Sequence record: OM313461
Direction: 5' to 3' (one strand)
From: Escherichia phage vB_EcoM_PiR
Length of the DNA: 52,936 nucleotides
The position numbers and the translations under genes are program-made. Below the pieces are notes generated by a model, which ran no database searches, had not been told where the DNA came from, and saw only the letters and a list, made by a program, of their open reading frames with translations. This document shows, one piece after another, positions 3,191 to 31,426 of the stretch (the first letter of the stretch is position 1; each line of letters starts with the position of its first letter).

Positions 3191-3904
3191 ATGGCACTTA
3201 AAACAGTTGTAACTGACCTTACCGAAGTTGATGAAGGCTTCCGTGGCCTGTATATCAAAGACGAAGCATCTGGCGCATTCCGTTTGGACGTTGAACCAGA
3301 CGAAAAAACGCTGAAAGAATTAGAAGACCTGCGCAAAGAAAAACAGCGTATGGAACAGCACACCAAAAAGCTTCTCGAAGAAAAGAAAAAAGAAGCTGAA
3401 CGTGCTCGCCTGGCTGAAGAAGAACGCGCACGTCGTGAGCGTGATGTTGAATCTCTTGAGCGCTCTATCAAAGAGAAACATCAGGCTGAACTGGAACAGT
3501 ATACTAATCGTCAGGCACAGCTGCAAGCTCAGCTGGAAGCGCAAATGGTTGATAACCTGGCGCTGAACCTGGCTAACCAACTCTCTGACACCCCGGCACT
3601 TATTATGCCACACATCAAGGCCCGACTGCGCGCTCAGGAAATTGATGGTAAGTGGCGTACTACTGTCGTGGATGTTATGGGTAACCCGACTGCTACAACG
3701 CCAGATGAGCTAGTGGAACATATGCGCGCTGATAAGCAGTTTGCACCTCTTGTGCGTGGAACCAAGGCTGGCGGTGGCGGTGCCAACGGCGGCGGAGCTA
3801 ATCCTGGTGGGAACGGCGGTGGCGAACAGCACACTTTCGGAGGCGGGGACGACCGCATAGCACGTGCTCGTGCTAAAATCCAAAACACACAATGGGGCAA
3901 ATAA
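3191..3904 (+). CDS. scaffolding protein (probable)
   Basis: 237-aa highly charged E/K/R-rich coiled-coil-like protein with Gly-rich C-terminus, immediately upstream of capsid gene. Confidence 0.55.
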   Translation: MALKTVVTDLTEVDEGFRGLYIKDEASGAFRLDVEPDEKTLKELEDLRKEKQRMEQHTKKLLEEKKKEAERARLAEEERARRERDVESLERSIKEKHQAELEQYTNRQAQLQAQLEAQMVDNLALNLANQLSDTPALIMPHIKARLRAQEIDGKWRTTVVDVMGNPTATTPDELVEHMRADKQFAPLVRGTKAGGGGANGGGANPGGNGGGEQHTFGGGDDRIARARAKIQNTQWGK

Positions 3905-24694: not shown

Positions 24695-24955
24695 ATGTTT
24701 GACTACAACGACAAGTCTTCCCTTATTGGCCAGTTTGTGGCTTGGGTAACAATAACAGTAAGTACTTTATCACTAAGTGATTGGGGTACTCTTATCGGTA
24801 TACTCAGTTCCTTGGTGATGCTGATTGTTGTTACATATAACCAAACACGGCGAACCAAAATTATGTCGGATTATTACAATCGTAAGAAGCCGATAGAGGA
24901 TGAAGTCGCGTCGAAAGAAGAGGTGTTACGTGAGTCTGAAATCAGCAGCGACTAA
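24695..24955 (+). CDS. holin (two-TMD, pinholin-like)
   Basis: 86 aa with two hydrophobic segments and charged C-terminus; ATG 24695 with GGAGA SD; track start 24614 is GTG inside the terminator stem. Confidence 0.6.
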   Translation: MFDYNDKSSLIGQFVAWVTITVSTLSLSDWGTLIGILSSLVMLIVVTYNQTRRTKIMSDYYNRKKPIEDEVASKEEVLRESEISSD

Positions 24956-24968
24956 AGGAGGTTGTAGC

Positions 24969-25475
24969 GTGCTCGCTATCATCGGGCTTGTATTGTCGAT
25001 GACAAGTACGCATGTACGTACTAATAAAGAAGGTCTTGAAATAATCGGTAATGCAGAAGGTTGTATGCGCAACCCGTATGTATGCCCTACTGGTTATTTA
25101 ACAGTTGGCATTGGTAGCCGCATCTACAGCGATGAGCCCGCTGTACGGCGCGAAGGCCTGACAGACCAGGAGATTGCTGACCGCTGGGTCAAGAATATAC
25201 AAGAAGCAGAAAAGTGTGTTAACGACTGGTTCCACGGTAAAGATATGAACACTAACCAGTTCAGCGCTATGACTTCAATGGTATTCAACCATGGTTGCAC
25301 TAGACTCCGTAAGAACAAGGATGGTTCACCTACCAAAATATATACTGCTGCCCGTAAACAAAACTGGACTGAAATGTGTAACAGCATAACTGACTGGGAT
25401 ATGGGTGGTAAGTACAGGGGCTTGACAATACGTAAGCAAAAGGAAAAAGCGTTATGTCTAAAACCGGTGCAATAA
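24969..25475 (+). CDS. SAR endolysin (T4-lysozyme-like muramidase with N-terminal signal-anchor-release domain)
   Basis: GTG 24969 seven nt after AAGGAGG; N-terminal hydrophobic LAIIGLVLSMTS followed by EGLEIIGNAEGC...TGYLTVGIG and MVFNHG lysozyme-like motifs. Confidence 0.7.
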   Translation: MLAIIGLVLSMTSTHVRTNKEGLEIIGNAEGCMRNPYVCPTGYLTVGIGSRIYSDEPAVRREGLTDQEIADRWVKNIQEAEKCVNDWFHGKDMNTNQFSAMTSMVFNHGCTRLRKNKDGSPTKIYTAARKQNWTEMCNSITDWDMGGKYRGLTIRKQKEKALCLKPVQ

Positions 25476-25783
25476 TTGCAGTTATTCTCGGCCTCGCCAT
25501 TGTGTTCCTGGCTTTGTGGGTACGTGAGCTGAAAGGTGATATTATCGACCGTGACGGTATAATCAAACAGCTTAACAAGACTAATGGCGAGTTGTCCGCT
25601 ACTAATCAAACGCTGATTAACTCTGTAAAGGATGAACGTGAGGCTTCAGCCAAACGCGCTAGTAAGATAGCTGAACTTGAACAACAACTGCGTGATAAGA
25701 AGGGTAAATATGACGAAGCGACAAAATATGATTCGTGCGCTAATACTGTTGCTCCTTCTGCCGTTCTTGAACTCATGCGCTGA
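25454..25783 (+). CDS. i-spanin (Rz-like)
   Basis: N-terminal transmembrane segment then charged coiled-coil periplasmic domain; follows endolysin. Confidence 0.6.
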   Translation: MSKTGAIIAVILGLAIVFLALWVRELKGDIIDRDGIIKQLNKTNGELSATNQTLINSVKDEREASAKRASKIAELEQQLRDKKGKYDEATKYDSCANTVAPSAVLELMR

Positions 25784-25985
25784 TAAGCCTGAAGTTGTTT
25801 ATGTTGACAGGGTAGTCAAGGTTTATCCGCCTGGTGCGTACATGGTTAAATGCCATAAACCTGAATTAACAGGTAATACCTGGAAGGCAATAGGTCAGTT
25901 AGCTATTGAACGTGGAACAGCTCTTGATGATTGTGCAGACAAGATGGACAGCATAATTAACTGGAGTAACAAAGGGGCCGAGTGA
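25710..25985 (+). CDS. o-spanin (Rz1-like lipoprotein)
   Basis: ATG 25710 with AAGGG SD; signal peptide LILLLLLPFLNSC with lipobox-like Cys; overlaps i-spanin 3' end in another frame. Confidence 0.55.
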   Translation: MTKRQNMIRALILLLLLPFLNSCADKPEVVYVDRVVKVYPPGAYMVKCHKPELTGNTWKAIGQLAIERGTALDDCADKMDSIINWSNKGAE

Positions 25986-26002
25986 TGGCCCCTTTATTTA
26001 TT
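25971..26002. terminator. bidirectional terminator between convergent late (+) and replication (-) units
   Basis: stem GGGGCC/GGCCCC (25974-25979/25987-25992) with 7-nt loop, A-run upstream and TTTATTTATT downstream. Confidence 0.6.
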
Positions 26003-26225
26003 AGCGTTTTCCTTTCAGCTCGTTATACTGCGCACATGCAGCACACAGCACTGTACCGGGTAAAAGCTGACGTCGTTTTTCTTCAATGTCTTCCCCACAC
26101 TGGTAGCACGTCAGCGGGCTTACTCCTGTGTATCTTACTCGGTTCGATAGCGCTGCGTCCCGGGCAACTTGTTCAGCTTCAGAAGCCATATCATTAATGT
26201 CCGATGTGCGCGTAGTCTCAATCAT
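26001..26225 (-). CDS. TraR/DksA-family C4 zinc-finger protein
   Basis: CYQCGEDIEEKRRQLLPGTVLCAAC matches the C-x2-C-x3-I-x3-R-x4-P-x4-C-x2-C signature; GAGGG SD. Confidence 0.8.
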   Translation of the reverse strand: MIETTRTSDINDMASEAEQVARDAALSNRVRYTGVSPLTCYQCGEDIEEKRRQLLPGTVLCAACAQYNELKGKR

Positions 26226-26500
26226 TATTTTCCCTCTTCTTCACAATACAGGGTTTCTAATTCGTCGCATAGCTGTTGCGTCCAGCAATCATCCTCACCA
26301 CGTATCTGGAAGCACAGCACAGGAATATCCTGTCGTAAAATATCGCTCTTGTAAATCTTTTTGGCAACAGCTTCTGGTTCTTCCTGGAATATCTTCATAA
26401 ACCAGTCCAGGCCTGACGTGCAGCCTGAGGCGTCTAGTATCTCCTTCGCCCTTAACTTAAGCGTTTCATCTACTTCATACTCTAAACCTATCTTAGACAT
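26225..26500 (-). CDS. hypothetical protein
   Basis: ATG start, acidic 91-aa protein. Confidence 0.5.
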   Translation of the reverse strand: MSKIGLEYEVDETLKLRAKEILDASGCTSGLDWFMKIFQEEPEAVAKKIYKSDILRQDIPVLCFQIRGEDDCWTQQLCDELETLYCEEEGK

Positions 26501-26515
26501 ATTATAGACCTTTAA

Positions 26516-28483
26516 TTAGTGTGCCTCTGCCCAGTTACTTTCTATCTTAGCATCAGTAAGAACAGGTACACGAAGCGGTAGTACAGTTTCCATGACCCGT
26601 ACGAAATCATAGAACCCATCTTCTGCTTGCTTACCAGACGGTAGAGAGAAGTTAAGCTCATCGTGTACAGTCAGGCGAGGTACGCCAATCACGTCAAAGT
26701 AACCGTCTTCATACCCTTTCAGCATTGCAGACTTCATCTGGTCTGCTGACGACCCTTGCAGCACTCGGTTGATTGCCTTGTGGGTGTCTGCCAGTTTAAT
26801 GTTCGGGCCATACTCCTGACGTGCTTCTTCAAATGGCAAAGGCATCTTCCCGAATCCACCACGCTTTGGTACCCACTTATTGAACCACGTCTTCCGGCCC
26901 ATAAAGGTTTCTACGTACCCCTGGCTATAACATAAATCTTCATAATGCTTCATGGTAGCACCAATGAATGGTGCGCCCTGATGGTACGCCTTCAGAACAG
27001 GTTCTGCTTCTTCAGGCGTCATTGCTAACTTACGGGCAAGAGCATTAAGCATCATGCCATATAGCAAACCAAAGTTGATGGTCTTGGCTGGTTTACGCTC
27101 TATAACGTGACCTGAGGCTTCCTTGATAATATCGACCATAACATTGTGGTAATCTGCTTCCGGGTTAGCCGCGAAAATTGCTCGTAACTCATCAGCGCCC
27201 GGGCCGACTGCAAAATGCGCCATGAATCGATATTCAATTTGGGCGTAGTCTGCTGATCCCCATCTGTGTCCGACATCCGGTACGAAACAAGCACGAAGGA
27301 GTGGTCCCAGTATTTTGTGTCGAGACGGTATATTCTGCAGATTAGGGTCAGATGAGCTAAACCGACCACTAACGGTTCCACCGTCATCACCGCGCATTTG
27401 ATGGAATTGACCGTGAAGGAAGCCATTTGTATTCATCCCCAATATATAGCCACGAATAAACGTGGACTGGATTTTTTCATAAGACTTAATCTCAGACACC
27501 AGTTCCGCAAACGGATGGTGCAAGCCTGCTAAGAAGTCTGCCGTAAACGACGGATTACCCGCCGCTGTTTTGAAGTACTCCAGACCTAAATGGTCAAATG
27601 CAAGAGCTAAGTCCGGACCTGAGTTAACGTTAATGTTAAAGCCAATCTGGTCTTTAATCTGCTGGTGCATTTTCCTTATTTCAGCGCTAAGCGTATCATC
27701 CGCCTCTTTGGCTTTATCAAGGTCAACACGCACACCTGCAAAACGCATCTTAAGCATTAATGGAATAAGCTTGCACTCCATATAGAATACATCTGTTAAA
27801 CACCAGCGACTTAACAAAGGCCACTGGGCTTTGATAATGTGTATTGGTAAGTCGGCGTCAGATTCAGCATAGTAACCCACAAGACGAGGAGGCGTTTTGT
27901 AGATGTACTTTCTGGCTTCACCTGTTGGCTTACAGCCATAAGCATCTGAAATCCATTGGTACATCTCGGCTGAGTCTTTACCTTCGCCTACATACTTTCG
28001 TCCAAGTCCTTCAAGTGCAACACGCGCGCCTGGGTCAAGTAATGCTTCCGCGAATTGTACATCCATGCACAATCCTTTAACTTCCACGCCTTCTGCTGCA
28101 AGCCAGCCCAAGTCATATGTGATGTTAGCACCGACTTTAACTTGGTTAGGTCGCGAGAGTTCGAGCCGAAGCCAACCAAGTACTTCCTCAGCTGGAAGGT
28201 TATCCTCTTCGCCGAGCTCGTGTCTGATTGGGTAGTAAGCTTTGAAGCCGTTGTCCGTAGCGATACTAACTCCAACGATATGACCCTCCCTCCTGGCCCA
28301 ACCACTACCATTTGTATCCATCCCTGGGTCGTATGTTTCACAGTCAAGACCGATAATCTTTGCAGAAGACAAATCCGGGTAATGCGCGCGCGGCCGCCAT
28401 CCAGTATCCCTGACGTATGGTATAGGACGGTTGATAGGTTTAACATTCTTTGCACCTTCGAAGCTATCGAATAAAAAGCTCAT
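26516..28483 (-). CDS. DNA polymerase, family A, with 3'-5' exonuclease domain
   Basis: exo motif LDCET; pol motifs DYAQIEYR (A), KTINFGLLYG (B), VHDE (C); GAGGGGA SD. Confidence 0.9.
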   Translation of the reverse strand: MSFLFDSFEGAKNVKPINRPIPYVRDTGWRPRAHYPDLSSAKIIGLDCETYDPGMDTNGSGWARREGHIVGVSIATDNGFKAYYPIRHELGEEDNLPAEEVLGWLRLELSRPNQVKVGANITYDLGWLAAEGVEVKGLCMDVQFAEALLDPGARVALEGLGRKYVGEGKDSAEMYQWISDAYGCKPTGEARKYIYKTPPRLVGYYAESDADLPIHIIKAQWPLLSRWCLTDVFYMECKLIPLMLKMRFAGVRVDLDKAKEADDTLSAEIRKMHQQIKDQIGFNINVNSGPDLALAFDHLGLEYFKTAAGNPSFTADFLAGLHHPFAELVSEIKSYEKIQSTFIRGYILGMNTNGFLHGQFHQMRGDDGGTVSGRFSSSDPNLQNIPSRHKILGPLLRACFVPDVGHRWGSADYAQIEYRFMAHFAVGPGADELRAIFAANPEADYHNVMVDIIKEASGHVIERKPAKTINFGLLYGMMLNALARKLAMTPEEAEPVLKAYHQGAPFIGATMKHYEDLCYSQGYVETFMGRKTWFNKWVPKRGGFGKMPLPFEEARQEYGPNIKLADTHKAINRVLQGSSADQMKSAMLKGYEDGYFDVIGVPRLTVHDELNFSLPSGKQAEDGFYDFVRVMETVLPLRVPVLTDAKIESNWAEAH

Positions 28484-29478
28484 CAGTCCCCTCTCACATA
28501 CGCAATTACAACTGTACGAGTTGAGTTTTCCATTTTGAGCGCCTGACTACCAAGCCCTATTCTTTCCATGCCTTTAGCCAGTTTACTCATCTGACTAATA
28601 ACACAGTTGAACGGTTTACTAAACTTAGTCGACTGGAACTTAATGTCGACGGACATCTTAGGAATAATCTTGTCTGGTAAGTCTGCTTTTGCTGTTGACT
28701 CGCCAGTTATCTCCAGAATGGCTTGACCTTCGTCATACCCAGTAAGCTGGTCCATAACTTCCAGGAATTCAGGAGTGATGGCCTGCATATCCATTTCCAT
28801 ATTGAAGAACTTCGATACGTCTGGCCATTTGGCTGCGAGTACCGGAGCATCCATCTGTACGCCATCCGCAAAACCGAAGAACATCTGACCGCGGGTATAT
28901 CCTACGCTTGTGGGTTCCATCTTCAGCTTAACCAGAGCCTCAAGCATTGGTTTGGCTATGGCACATTCAAATTCAAAATCTACATTCAACTTCTCGCGTA
29001 TCATATACTTACCGTTAGTGGCGTAAGCATAACCATCGCGCAGAAGTAAAGATGTTGCCCATACCTGCGGTGCTTCGTTAGGTACCCATTTGGCTAAGGC
29101 AGTTAATACCGGGAGTAATTCGCCATGTGCTGAATACCAGTTGTTAACTGTAGCAAGCGGCGGTATTGGTTCATTAAGCGCTTGCATTCTTGTTTTAAGT
29201 ACACCTGCTGTGACCGTGAGGTTTCCAGCGGCTGTAATGTTAAAAGTAATCTGTTCAGTTCTTGCCGCATTAACGGCCTTACGAAATGATTCAGCATCCA
29301 CTTGCAGGTCTGGAAATCCTTTACATGGCGCTCGTAGTAATACGTTCTTGTAGTATGAATGGATTGTTCCGTCTGCAATCCATATTTTGCCCATAAGACC
29401 ACTATCAGTATACTTGATGGGACGAGCTTGTTGAACGGCAGTCTGTATTTGTTTGGTGTCATAGTTAAACTTGCTCAT
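28483..29478 (-). CDS. hypothetical protein, possibly sliding-clamp-like polymerase accessory factor
   Basis: 331 aa adjacent to polymerase; WPDVSKFF segment resembles the beta-clamp (F/W)PDYxxV motif; weak, by eye. Confidence 0.35.
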   Translation of the reverse strand: MSKFNYDTKQIQTAVQQARPIKYTDSGLMGKIWIADGTIHSYYKNVLLRAPCKGFPDLQVDAESFRKAVNAARTEQITFNITAAGNLTVTAGVLKTRMQALNEPIPPLATVNNWYSAHGELLPVLTALAKWVPNEAPQVWATSLLLRDGYAYATNGKYMIREKLNVDFEFECAIAKPMLEALVKLKMEPTSVGYTRGQMFFGFADGVQMDAPVLAAKWPDVSKFFNMEMDMQAITPEFLEVMDQLTGYDEGQAILEITGESTAKADLPDKIIPKMSVDIKFQSTKFSKPFNCVISQMSKLAKGMERIGLGSQALKMENSTRTVVIAYVRGD

Positions 29479-29485
29479 AGTATAA

Positions 29486-29501
29486 CGGGGCCGAAGCCCC
29501 G
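29486..29501 (-). other. GC hairpin with UUCG tetraloop (as RNA: CGGGGC-UUCG-GCCCCG) at gene junction
   Basis: perfect 6-bp stem; lies between TS-like stop and next start; same core as hairpin at 35927-35946. Confidence 0.6.
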
Positions 29502-29508
29502 CTCCATC

Positions 29509-30393
29509 TTATACGGCCATTTGTAGTTTGATGTTTGGCATTGGTTTGTACTTCTCAACCATTGGCGTAACATCGGCAGGAGTGAAGTCAAACACTGACA
29601 CGTCGTAAATTGCGTTAATGTCAGGACGACCTTCAAAGTTAGTGTCCAGTGTAGTATCAGAATTGCTTACGATACGTTGCAGGAAAATCTTTGCAGCATC
29701 GATATGATTCTGATAGATGTGATAGTCACCCAGCGTAACAGTCATATCACCTACCCCAGTACCCAGCTCAGCAGCAATGGTAATCTGCAGCATTTGATGC
29801 AACAGAATATCGTGAGGCAGACCCAGAATAACATCCGCGCTACGCATGTGGAACATCAGCTCTAATTCATTGCGGTTGTTAATGAACAGCTGAAAACCAT
29901 GGTAACAAGGCGGAAGGGCCATGGCGTCCATCTCTTGTGGGTTCCATGCCGTAATGTATGCCCGGCGGTCAGTAGGCTTAACCTTCAGCGTTTCAATAAC
30001 ATCTTTAAGCTGGTTAGTAAGAACACCATTCTTGTAGAATGGCTTAATCCATTGCACGCCGTACACAGGACCTAAGTCACGGTTGTCTGGCGTACCCCAG
30101 CGTTTGTTTGCGTCCTGCAGGTTACCTTCCCACCAGTTGCAGCCAAAGCCTTTGAGCGTGTCGACGTTTGAAATACCGTTGATAAAGCAGTAAAGCTCAG
30201 CAGCAACAGCTTTGATGTTAACAGGTTTAAACACCGGCACCATCAGTTTGTTGTCGTTAAAAGCCAGCTTAAATGCTGTACCAAAACAACGGCGTGTACC
30301 AACACCTGTACGGTCTACAACATCCTCGCCTTTACGCAGGATAAAAGAAATGATGTCGCTGTAAAGAGAATCGACAGTGCTATATGTTTTCAT
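29509..30393 (-). CDS. thymidylate-synthase-fold enzyme, predicted dCMP-specific (dCMP hydroxymethylase or methylase)
   Basis: aligns to ThyA: DRTGxGT, DLGPVYG, catalytic Cys in ALPPCYHGFQ, RSxD, GDYHIYQNH; specificity Asn replaced by Asp in GLPHD. Confidence 0.8.
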   Translation of the reverse strand: MKTYSTVDSLYSDIISFILRKGEDVVDRTGVGTRRCFGTAFKLAFNDNKLMVPVFKPVNIKAVAAELYCFINGISNVDTLKGFGCNWWEGNLQDANKRWGTPDNRDLGPVYGVQWIKPFYKNGVLTNQLKDVIETLKVKPTDRRAYITAWNPQEMDAMALPPCYHGFQLFINNRNELELMFHMRSADVILGLPHDILLHQMLQITIAAELGTGVGDMTVTLGDYHIYQNHIDAAKIFLQRIVSNSDTTLDTNFEGRPDINAIYDVSVFDFTPADVTPMVEKYKPMPNIKLQMAV

Positions 30394-31397: not shown

Positions 31398-31426
31398 ATT
31401 ATACCACATCACTCTCTAGTGGTAAA
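31398..31426 (-). promoter_or_regulatory. sigma70-like promoter TTTACC-N17-TATAAT (minus strand)
   Basis: reverse complement of 31421-31426 is TTTACC and of 31398-31403 is TATAAT, 17-bp spacer. Confidence 0.55.

Follow-up and report, generated by a model that had tools for sequence, protein, structure and literature searches.

A TraR-family zinc-finger protein encoded at the end of the DNA polymerase operon of a virulent Rosemountvirus

The last gene of the replication operon of Escherichia phage vB_EcoM_PiR (sequence record OM313461; the window analyzed here is a stretch of 52,936 nucleotides) encodes a 74-residue protein that has every sequence and fold feature defining functional TraR proteins, the family that enables mobile elements to run a stringent-response-like transcription programme in the absence of ppGpp. 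[quoted passage not shown] It is from the features described below that we infer that the protein binds RNA polymerase, which promoters it affects and how the phage benefits. The TraR-type assignment as such is not new, as the ortholog of phage BP63 (97% identical) was already annotated as a "DksA-like zinc-finger protein" in RefSeq, and the proposed activity would not surprise a specialist, given that the family, the mechanism and the database annotation already exist. Note also that "DksA-like" and "DnaK suppressor", as used in databases, are imprecise names, the 74-residue protein being no ortholog of DksA.

The gene and its operon

The source phage is a Rosemountvirus, a virulent BP63/JEP7-like myovirus of Salmonella and E. 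coli. The gene appears in the list of open reading frames as a minus-strand frame running from 26225 to 26001, with an ATG start and 74 codons, and its product reads MIETTRTSDINDMASEAEQVARDAALSNRVRYTGVSPLTCYQCGEDIEEKRRQLLPGTVLCAACAQYNELKGKR. The features of the gene and of its operon are the following:

26001-26225, minus strand: coding sequence of the 74-residue TraR-family protein, ortholog of BP63 gp51 and fHy-Eco03 gp50
26232-26236, minus strand: Shine-Dalgarno sequence GAGGG, 6 nt 5' of the ATG of this gene, read from the sequence
26225-26500, minus strand: acidic 91-residue open reading frame (PHROG 28954), a conserved neighbour and possible partner
31398-31426, minus strand: putative sigma-70-like promoter of the seven-gene unit, TTTACC-17-TGgTATAAT, found by promoter scan as a consensus match (10 of 12 positions, plus the TG)
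25971-25995, both strands: G+C-rich hairpin, found by terminator scan, at which the minus-strand replication unit and, converging on it, the plus-strand lysis cassette both end

The start codon of the 74-residue gene shares bases with the stop codon of the 91-residue frame (TAATG), which suggests translational coupling of the two genes. Comparison with orthologs at dS above 1 gives dN/dS values of 0.08-0.12, indicative of strong purifying selection; this signature, together with the Shine-Dalgarno sequence and the start/stop overlap, establishes that the frame is a real gene. A plus-strand frame of 71 codons at 25982-26197 was taken as spurious antisense, the selection signature being carried by the minus-strand frame. 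A match to the Rfam family sraL, covering the 3' half of the gene and the terminator, scores 23.9 against 39 bits and was judged a chance match driven by the terminator.

The first-pass annotation had placed the gene at the distal end of the replication operon, and this position holds: it is the last of seven tightly packed genes forming a minus-strand unit of about 5.4 kb, in the order 132-residue open reading frame, nucleotide pyrophosphohydrolase, thymidylate synthase, polymerase processivity factor, family-A DNA polymerase, 91-residue open reading frame and 74-residue gene. The promoter of the unit (31426-31398) sits directly 3' of a terminator hairpin and has an A+T-rich discriminator, AAGTTAT; the BP63 annotation carries a promoter at the equivalent site. 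The hairpin at the other end folds as RNA with -19.8 kcal/mol (z -6.25, minus strand) and has a weak minus-strand U-tract (UUUGUUACU), and BP63 is annotated with terminators on both strands at this site.

Co-transcription with the polymerase and the processivity factor would be explained if the protein, as a secondary-channel binder, served the replication fork by destabilizing or clearing RNA polymerases that block the phage replisome, in the way DksA acts on elongation complexes. The gene is tightly linked to the polymerase gene in Rosemountvirus, in Loughboroughvirus and in the metagenomic relative L011, P2 Orf82 and PSP3 gp34 likewise have replication genes around them (with which P2 Orf82 is co-transcribed), and a preprint credits DksA with a positive role in DNA replication and with the ability to act on elongation (10.64898/2026.07.27.740977). 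We nevertheless regard such a role as distinctly unlikely, for the documented activity of the TraR family concerns initiation, and operon position is a weak guide in phages, whose early and middle operons mix functions. The reading as an initiation factor acting on host promoters is the one that we pursue in the following.

The zinc finger and the features that accompany it in TraR proteins

The features of the protein on which the family assignment rests are, in coordinates of the window:

26034-26108, minus strand: C4 zinc-binding motif in the globular domain, C40-x2-C43-x17-C61-x2-C64, by direct reading
26184-26201, minus strand: DxxDxA motif, D9-I-N-D12-M-A14, predicted to contact the active-site region of RNA polymerase
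26070-26075, minus strand: R51-R52, equivalent to TraR R48 (beta' rim helices) and R49 (beta'Si3)
26007-26042, minus strand: C-terminal helix predicted by AlphaFold (residues 62-73), equivalent to TraR-C

The C4 signature, previously said to be matched essentially exactly, is an exact fit to C-x2-C-x3-I-x3-R-x4-P-x4-C-x2-C. The six-frame translation of the window contains the strict pattern a single time, at the site of the gene, and none of 200 shuffled sequences contains it. Among 136 family representatives, 128 have the same spacing of 17 residues. The sole unusual residue of the motif is Y41, at a position where family members usually carry an acidic residue. The protein matches the Pfam family PF01258 (zf-dskA_traR) with 39.4 bits (E 6.2e-10), above the gathering cut-off of 24.9 bits, and PHROG 54, "DksA-like zinc-finger protein" (E 6.4e-18). 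The NCBIfam model TIGR02419 (C4_traR_proteo) aligns over its full length with 51.7 bits, below the cut-off of 59.7; this cut-off excludes true members, since the validated lambda Orf73 also falls below it, with 54.7 bits. At E 0.01 or better, no other Pfam family and none of the DksA equivalog models TIGR02420, NF008045 and NF033459 matched.

Not every C4 finger of the DksA/TraR type acts on RNA polymerase, and the inactive proteins are devoid of both the DxxDxA motif and the C-terminal helix (PMC9239242). A C4 finger alone is thus no proof of TraR-like function, which is why features beyond it were examined. They support the TraR/DksA-type assignment made earlier and place it on a firmer basis than the C4 signature by itself: the DxxDxA motif, the arginine pair equivalent to R48/R49, the C-terminal helix and a length of about 73 residues are all present.

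The DxxDxA motif is needed for the function of TraR and Orf73 (PMC9239242). Position 1 of the TIGR02419 profile falls on D9 of the phage protein and on D3 of TraR and lambda Orf73. The alignment with the experimentally tested homologs shows no substitution at D9 or D12 and hardly any at A14, and among 105 family members D12 never varies and D9 and A14 are each conserved in at least 90%; the motif as a whole is invariant across the phage clade and present in 84% of family representatives. The distance from D9 to the first cysteine, 31 residues, is the mode of the family. A BLASTP alignment that set TraR D3 against D12, with six gaps and the motif degraded to DxxSxA, was dropped, as the profile, the hmmsearch coordinates (query positions 8-9 fall on protein positions 2-3 in most matches), the MAFFT alignments and clade conservation favour D9; the resulting distance of 28 residues would lie beyond the observed range. 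The pair R51/R52 is invariant both in the clade alignment and in the alignment with all tested homologs, and an RR pair occupies this position in 117 of 136 representatives (86%); in TraR, R48 contacts the beta' rim helices and R49 beta'Si3 (PMC9239242, PMC6970531). Within the C-terminal helix, whose TraR equivalent contacts the beta lobe-Si1 (PMC6970531), E69 is nearly invariant among tested homologs. Residues invariant with TraR, lambda Orf73, P2 Orf82, VHML Orf8 and VP882 Orf61 are D9, D12, C40, C43, I47, R51, R52, C61 and C64.

The structure prediction agrees with this picture. A first AlphaFold run on 11 close relatives was too weak (pLDDT 64.7) and was redone with 105 sequences, yielding a model with pLDDT 84.5 that consists of a coil (residues 1-9), a helix (10-27), the zinc globule and a second helix (62-73); at 74 residues and with one N-terminal helix, it has no coiled coil of the DksA type. 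In a Foldseek search of this model, the first rank by E-value was taken by the NMR model of E. coli YbiI (E 1.6e-3, TM 0.45/0.38), followed by TraR in RNA polymerase complexes, which gave the best superposition (TM 0.55-0.61, rmsd 3.7-4.1 Å, probability 1.00), and then by DksA.

The rank of YbiI bears on the idea that the product is a zinc-ribbon protein with no task in the secondary channel, be it an Ogr/Delta-type activator of late genes, a Mu Com-like activator of translation, a replication accessory that binds nucleic acid or a YbiI-like protein. C4 ribbons are functionally diverse, some of the DksA/TraR type do not act on RNA polymerase (PMC9239242), and the fHy-Eco03 ortholog is not toxic (see below). 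We find this idea very improbable, because PF01258 is the sole Pfam match, the YbiI-type model NF008243 covers only the finger and reaches 30.2 bits against a cut-off of 96, and the DxxDxA motif and C-terminal helix that inactive C4 proteins miss are present and conserved here. Ogr/Delta and Mu Com proteins belong to Pfam families of their own with other cysteine spacings, the spacing of 17 found here being that of TraR, and YbiI appears in the structural list owing to the shared fold.

Proposed function, the N-terminal extension and the upstream neighbour

Taken together, these data lead us to propose a TraR-family transcription factor that would bind RNA polymerase and not DNA. Host sigma-70 RNA polymerase would transcribe its gene as the last cistron of the DNA polymerase operon. 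The N-terminal helix would reach down the secondary channel, placing D9, D12 and A14 beside the active-site region, while the C-terminal helix would engage the beta lobe-Si1. As for F TraR and lambda Orf73, binding would alter the conformation of RNA polymerase without ppGpp and shorten the lifetime of open complexes, so that intrinsically unstable promoters (those of rRNA and ribosomal proteins) would be inhibited and stable promoters left unaffected or even stimulated; the phage promoter, with its A+T-rich discriminator, may belong to the latter. Overall, this would leave more host RNA polymerase and more nucleotides available to the phage for its transcription and replication. All close relatives of the phage infect Salmonella, E. 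coli or Klebsiella, and the RNA polymerases of these hosts have the Si1 and Si3 insertions on which TraR relies. Against the proposal stand the TIGR02419 score below cut-off, the late position of the DxxDxA motif, the replacement of two TraR prolines that aid binding and the behaviour of an ortholog in a toxicity screen, all described in this text.

The notion of a host-takeover factor, raised in the first-pass annotation, is probably best understood as mild reprogramming, a redistribution of RNA polymerase and not a shut-off, because the 84%-identical fHy-Eco03 ortholog, g50, was not flagged as toxic when screened by cloning in E. coli (ratios 1.53 and 0.75). No experiments on TraR or DksA-like proteins from virulent phages turned up in a literature search, and the phage TraR homologs with validated function all come from temperate phages. 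If the proposed function is correct, it would extend the mechanism to virulent phages, here a strictly lytic one under development for biocontrol of Salmonella and E. coli, and would partly explain how a phage without an RNA polymerase of its own holds its ground against rRNA operons in the competition for that of the host. The protein would also provide a natural, N-terminally extended variant with which to probe the action of the secondary-channel tip on the active site.

This extension is encoded by the first codons of the gene:

26202-26225, minus strand: codons 1-8 (MIETTRTS), a six-residue extension relative to TraR and lambda Orf73

The first aspartate of the DxxDxA motif is thereby residue 9, and residue 3 in TraR and lambda Orf73. 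Of 114 family representatives, 94 have the motif starting at residue 2 or 3, and a start as late as residue 9 with no internal methionine is found in only about 5% of them. The extension takes the form M-I-E-T/S-T-R-T/S-S in the clade, with E3, T5, R6 and S8 invariant among 11 members, and codons 1-9 differ from those of AEV23 and fHy-Eco03 by three to four synonymous and zero to one non-synonymous changes. Ahead of M13 the frame contains no alternative start codon. Initiation at M13 itself was rejected, as it would destroy the motif and lacks a Shine-Dalgarno sequence, and codons 1-9 are under purifying selection.

In the AlphaFold model the extension is coil, and residues 1-10 have a mean pLDDT of 62. 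Since S2 of TraR already sits 4.3 Å from the catalytic Mg2+ (PMC6970531), the six extra residues must either fold back or intrude. It is conceivable, although we think it unlikely, that this conserved segment makes the protein a mechanistically distinct variant whose activity differs from that of TraR, maybe in concert with the 91-residue neighbour. The extension would then enter the active centre and could there obstruct the NTP or template site or, through E3, perturb Mg2+; alternatively, it could fold back as a miniature version of a DksA or Gre coiled-coil tip. Such a variant might, for example, inhibit more strongly and directly, or affect elongation or cleavage.

The neighbour itself occurs solely in the 60 phage records of the Rosemountvirus/Loughboroughvirus group, and the protein matched nothing in Pfam, NCBIfam or the PDB. 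In the loci inspected (BP63, JEP7 and AEV23) its gene immediately precedes the zinc-finger gene, and the pair is kept in the metagenomic relative L011, with 66% and 53% identity of the two proteins. This group-specific adjacency, L011 included, and the TAATG overlap raise the possibility of a two-protein module, in which the translationally coupled 91-residue protein would bind the TraR-like protein and strengthen or redirect its action. A precedent exists in VP882, where TraR forms a complex with QisA, the product of the upstream gene, and both together arrest growth far more than TraR alone; moreover, the fHy-Eco03 screen recorded mild toxicity for the 91-residue ortholog g52 but not for the TraR-like g50. 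Against this analogy, the neighbour shows no similarity to QisA (E 1.2) and is much shorter (91 against 199 residues), a 51-residue frame (gp51) is annotated between the two genes in fHy-Eco03, and adjacency of non-interacting proteins is common in compact operons. A module of this kind therefore seems improbable to us, and we retain a TraR-type factor acting on host RNA polymerase as the preferred reading.

Comparison with known TraR-family systems

A word-indexed search gave only close relatives, and an exhaustive profile search was used instead to find homologs. Outside the clade, the nearest ones in the phage collection are of the lambda Orf73 type (36-40% identity over residues 6-74). TraR of the F plasmid shares 34% identity by BLASTP (E 6e-12), phmmer finds the TraR chains of the RNA polymerase complexes 6N57 and 5W1S (E 1.4e-6), and tblastn with F TraR retrieves Rosemountviruses.

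F TraR (73 residues; PDB 6N57, 5W1S) has the same arrangement of N-terminal helix, C4 globule and C-terminal helix, the DxxDxA motif, the CxxC-17-CxxC finger, R48/R49 corresponding to R51/R52, and E46 corresponding to E49. Differently from the phage gene, it is encoded by a conjugation gene and has no counterpart of the six extra N-terminal residues, and its stretch from the DxxDxA motif to the first cysteine is longer (34 against 31 residues). P43, P45 and K50 of TraR, the first two of which aid RNA polymerase binding (PMC6970531), are replaced by D46, E48 and Q53.

Lambda Orf73 (73 residues) shares the DxxDxA motif, the C4 motif and the RR pair, also has no equivalent of P45, and is likewise expressed together with early recombination or replication genes. 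It differs in coming from the pL exo-xis region of a temperate phage, in having six cysteines and in having no N-terminal extension. For proteins of the Orf73 type, binding to RNA polymerase, inhibition of rrnB P1 and an increase in burst size have been demonstrated. More generally, such binding and rrnB P1 inhibition were seen with all five phage homologs under test, each of which also complemented a dksA deletion (PMC9239242). Overexpression of lambda Orf73, P2 Orf82 or TraR slows growth, in contrast to the lack of toxicity of the fHy-Eco03 ortholog.

Among the tested homologs, VHML Orf8 alone carries an N-terminal extension too (four residues, MTDCSADPLDRA), and its stretch between motif and finger aligns without gaps, and thus with equal spacing, to that of the 74-residue protein. 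It belongs, however, to a temperate Vibrio phage, and its extension is unrelated in sequence. Orf8 was the least active homolog on E. coli RNA polymerase, with an IC50 of 800 nM, a weakness for which the authors held both the extension and the foreign host partly responsible (PMC9239242).

VP882 TraR (Orf61), whose effect requires the DxxDxA motif, resembles the present protein in being encoded directly 3' of another small-protein gene. The upstream products differ in sequence as well as in length, and the locus described here offers no context of Q antiterminator, cI or quorum sensing.

Finally, DksA (151 residues, chromosomal, acting with ppGpp) has in common with the phage protein the zinc globule, the DxxDxA tip and the C-terminal helix, and its binding site on RNA polymerase is the one that we propose for the 74-residue protein. 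The latter is half the size and without the coiled coil and the ppGpp-contacting residues of DksA; speculatively, its short N-terminal extension might double back in the manner of the first coiled-coil helix of DksA.

The zinc-finger gene and the replication operon

The last gene of the replication operon encodes a 74-residue protein with cysteines C40-x2-C43-x17-C61-x2-C64, arranged as C-x2-C-x3-I-x3-R-x4-P-x4-C-x2-C. The first-pass annotation had described the C4 signature as essentially exactly matched, and this holds: the strict pattern occurs once in the six-frame translation of the window and in none of 200 shuffles, and the protein matches Pfam PF01258 (zf-dskA_traR; 39.4 bits, cut-off 24.9, E 6.2e-10) and PHROG 54, 'DksA-like zinc-finger protein' (E 6.4e-18). 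The ATG shares bases with the preceding gene's stop codon and has a Shine-Dalgarno sequence (GAGGG) 6 nt before it, and comparison with the orthologs of phage fHy-Eco03 and Klebsiella phage AEV23 gives a dN/dS of 0.08-0.12 (dS >1, dN 0.10-0.20). Given the unique strict pattern, the two family matches, the Shine-Dalgarno sequence and the low dN/dS, the C4 zinc-finger gene is real, well beyond chance. A second pattern, CxxC-x20-CxxC, was seen in the six-frame translation at window 3194-3277 (minus strand; CARCFVFDIQATEAFINFGKVSYNCFKC) and lies outside the DksA/TraR signature. The operon consists of seven closely packed minus-strand genes.

Features of the operon and its surroundings (window coordinates)
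31481-31454: terminator-like hairpin before the promoter
31426-31398, minus: promoter consensus match TTTACC-17-TGgTATAAT, followed by an A+T-rich discriminator and a Shine-Dalgarno sequence
31371, minus: first ATG of the operon
Gene 1, minus: 132-aa ORF
Gene 2, minus: nucleotide pyrophosphohydrolase
Gene 3, minus: thymidylate synthase
Gene 4, minus: polymerase processivity factor
Gene 5, minus: family-A DNA polymerase
Gene 6, 26225-26500, minus: acidic 91-aa ORF (PHROG 28954), probably translationally coupled to the TraR-like gene
Gene 7 (last), 26225 to 26001, minus: zinc-finger (TraR-like) CDS, 74-aa ORF
25971-25995: hairpin 3' of the zinc-finger gene, 5 bases past its stop codon (-19.8 kcal/mol, z -6.25)
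24900-25985, plus: convergent lysis cassette with endolysin (Phage_lysozyme), i-spanin and o-spanin
25454-25783, plus: Rz-like i-spanin
25677 or 25842 to 25985, plus: LysC/Rz1-like o-spanin, overlapping the i-spanin out of frame

The gene had earlier been placed at the distal end of the operon, and in this phage that is correct: it is seventh of seven, and the hairpin after it also terminates the convergent holin-endolysin-spanin cassette. The start codons of the o-spanin and endolysin differ between the BP63 and JEP7 annotations. A sub-threshold match to Rfam sraL, an Hfq-binding sRNA (window 25966-26115, minus strand; 23.9 bits against a gathering threshold of 39; E 0.016 in a 3-kb search), spans the 3' half of the TraR-like ORF and the terminator hairpin; it is probably due to chance, the alignment being carried mostly by the terminator stem. 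Small genes continue 3' of the zinc-finger gene in fHy-Eco03 and in the metagenomic relative L011, where the next gene (L011 1500-1712, plus strand) matches Pfam PF21825 (Sequestin) and is followed by a DUF4326 gene. These two genes are absent at the corresponding position of the window, which makes the operon's 3' end a variable region.

By megablast with window 25000-30000, 52 phage records cover at least 80% of the interval and 45 of the 60 matching records are 90-99% identical, nearly all being members of Rosemountvirus that infect Salmonella or Escherichia (among them BP63, JEP7, yarpen and swi3). JEP7 (MT764207.1) has the gene coordinates of the window and ~97.4% identity over this interval, and the TraR-like protein is 100% identical in vB_EcoM_PiR and PA13076. 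The Rosemountvirus relatives are virulent myoviruses of ~52-53 kb; an integrase, a repressor, an RNA polymerase and a sigma factor are all missing from the BP63 RefSeq annotation. The phage studied here seems to rely on the RNA polymerase of its host throughout.

TraR-specific elements beyond the finger

As pointed out by the Gourse laboratory, proteins are often filed as TraR/DksA homologs from the finger alone, and RNA polymerase is not a target of C4 proteins that have neither DxxDxA nor the C-terminal helix (PMC9239242). Three functional elements are conserved in TraR proteins: an N-terminal helix bearing DxxDxA, a C4 globule whose R48 and R49 contact the rim helices and beta'Si3, respectively, and a C-terminal helix contacting beta Si1 (PMC9239242). 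The TraR/DksA-type assignment, for which the C4 signature alone is insufficient, is borne out by the DxxDxA motif, the arginine pair and a predicted C-terminal helix.

The motif is D9-I-N-D12-M-A14. A different BLASTP register was overruled by four lines of evidence that pair D9 with TraR D3: position 1 of the TIGR02419 profile falls on D9 of this protein and on D3 of TraR and lambda Orf73; when 1.84 billion representatives are searched exhaustively with a profile, query positions 8-9 map to positions 2-3 of most matches; D12 is invariant and D9 and A14 are at least 90% conserved in a MAFFT alignment of 105 sequences; and the distance of 31 from the aspartate to the first cysteine is the family mode (54 of 114 representatives). 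R51 and R52 correspond to TraR R48 and R49, an arginine pair that does not vary among this protein, TraR, lambda Orf73, P2 Orf82, VHML Orf8 and VP882 Orf61. E49 aligns with TraR E46, another Si3 contact (PMC6970531).

The AlphaFold model (105 sequences, pLDDT 84.5) comprises a coil (1-9), a helix (10-27), the zinc globule and a helix (62-73). By Foldseek E-value the top match is a YbiI NMR model (1.6e-3, TM 0.45/0.38); RNA polymerase-bound TraR comes next and is best superposed (5W1S_N, TM 0.58/0.61, rmsd 3.7 A; 6N57_M, TM 0.55/0.56), with DksA ranking after TraR. TraR chains in the PDB are recovered by phmmer (E 1.4e-6), tblastn with F TraR recovers Rosemountviruses, and the nearest out-of-clade homologs in the phage collection are Orf73 genes of lambda and Stx phages (36-40% identity over residues 6-74). 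The TIGR02419 score of 51.7 bits lies below the cut-off of 59.7; validated lambda Orf73 (54.7) also falls under it, and the threshold is therefore treated here as uninformative. Membership in the DksA-proper, YbiI-type, Ogr/Delta and Com families failed with the family models. Judging from these similarities, the protein is likely to be a secondary-channel regulator of RNA polymerase.

The TraR family, its mechanism and its occurrence in phages are already published, and the ortholog group already carries the name 'DksA-like zinc-finger protein' in PHROGs and RefSeq. What is added here is the presence of TraR-specific elements beyond the finger, the correct DxxDxA register, a conserved N-terminal extension, a conserved 91-residue neighbour, and a tie to existing toxicity data.

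A predicted regulator and its 91-residue neighbour

Cryo-EM and biochemistry have established that TraR binds the secondary channel and controls initiation allosterically and free of ppGpp (PMC6970531). Purified lambda Orf73, P2 Orf82, VHML Orf8, VP882 Orf61 and X. bovienii Gp34 all compete with DksA for RNA polymerase, inhibit rrnB P1 and complement a dksA deletion; Orf73 D3N and D6N are inactive, and lambda yield is ~4-fold higher with Orf73 (PMC9239242). By homology, the TraR-like protein would bind the secondary channel of the host enzyme and regulate initiation allosterically, independently of ppGpp. Promoters for rRNA and r-proteins would be turned down while the replication genes are expressed, thus freeing polymerase and nucleotides. 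An A+T-rich discriminator predicts insensitivity to DksA/TraR, and such a discriminator follows the consensus match in the operon's own promoter, which we infer would be insensitive to the TraR-like protein.

In a toxicity screen of fHy-Eco03, a noisy assay, the 84%-identical ortholog g50 scored as non-toxic (NGS ratio 1.53, plating ratio 0.75) and g52, the ortholog of the 91-aa gene, as mildly toxic in E. coli (0.56 and 0.33) (PMC8145870). Within the noise of the assay, the result for g50 argues against a strong shut-off function.

Among phage records, the 91-aa gene is confined to the 60 of the Rosemountvirus/Loughboroughvirus group. At the inspected loci it immediately precedes the zinc-finger gene, except for one small intervening ORF in fHy-Eco03. 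This annotated 51-aa ORF, gp51 (fHy-Eco03 locus L007, 2773-2928), overlaps both genes and has no equivalent in the window; one assay flagged it as weakly toxic, with a plating ratio of 0.44. The metagenomic relative L011 keeps the pair, with the polymerase 86%, the 91-aa protein 66% and the TraR-like protein 53% identical. In phage VP882, TraR and QisA, which is encoded by the gene just before traR, associate in a complex, and growth arrest is much stronger with this complex than with TraR on its own (2026 preprint, 10.64898/2026.07.27.740977). By analogy, the 91-aa protein is a possible partner of the TraR-like protein; this is a lead rather than a finding, since the 91-aa protein is unrelated in sequence to QisA and matches no known family in Pfam, NCBIfam or the PDB.

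The N-terminal extension and comparison with characterized members

The TraR-like protein carries six residues ahead of the usual TraR-family start. In 94 of 114 motif-bearing representatives DxxDxA begins at residue 2 or 3, and longer database N-termini mostly carry a methionine just before DxxDxA, as if their starts had been mis-called. Such a methionine is absent here, in the family representatives P0015, P0026 and P0063, and in a few others. Since E3, T5, R6 and S8 are invariant in the clade and extension codons change mostly synonymously, the extension is translated and constrained. TraR S2 lies 4.3 A from the catalytic Mg2+ (PMC6970531), and the extra residues must therefore fold back or enter the active centre.

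TraR P43 and P45, which help binding (PMC6970531), are replaced by D46 and E48, yet lambda Orf73 also lacks P45 and its activity equals that of TraR. The validated phage homologs all come from temperate phages, whereas this protein comes from a virulent one. Of the homologs tested, VHML Orf8 alone has an extension (four residues, with the same 31-residue spacing); it is active but the weakest, for which its authors suggest the extension as one cause (PMC9239242). The metagenomic P0026 (contig L012, 2705-4308) has an extension of the same kind (N-terminus METSERLAD...) and lies in the order cI-like repressor, 200-aa protein, TraR and Q antiterminator. This arrangement resembles that of VP882, so the extension also occurs in temperate, QisA-type contexts and is not specific to lytic phages.
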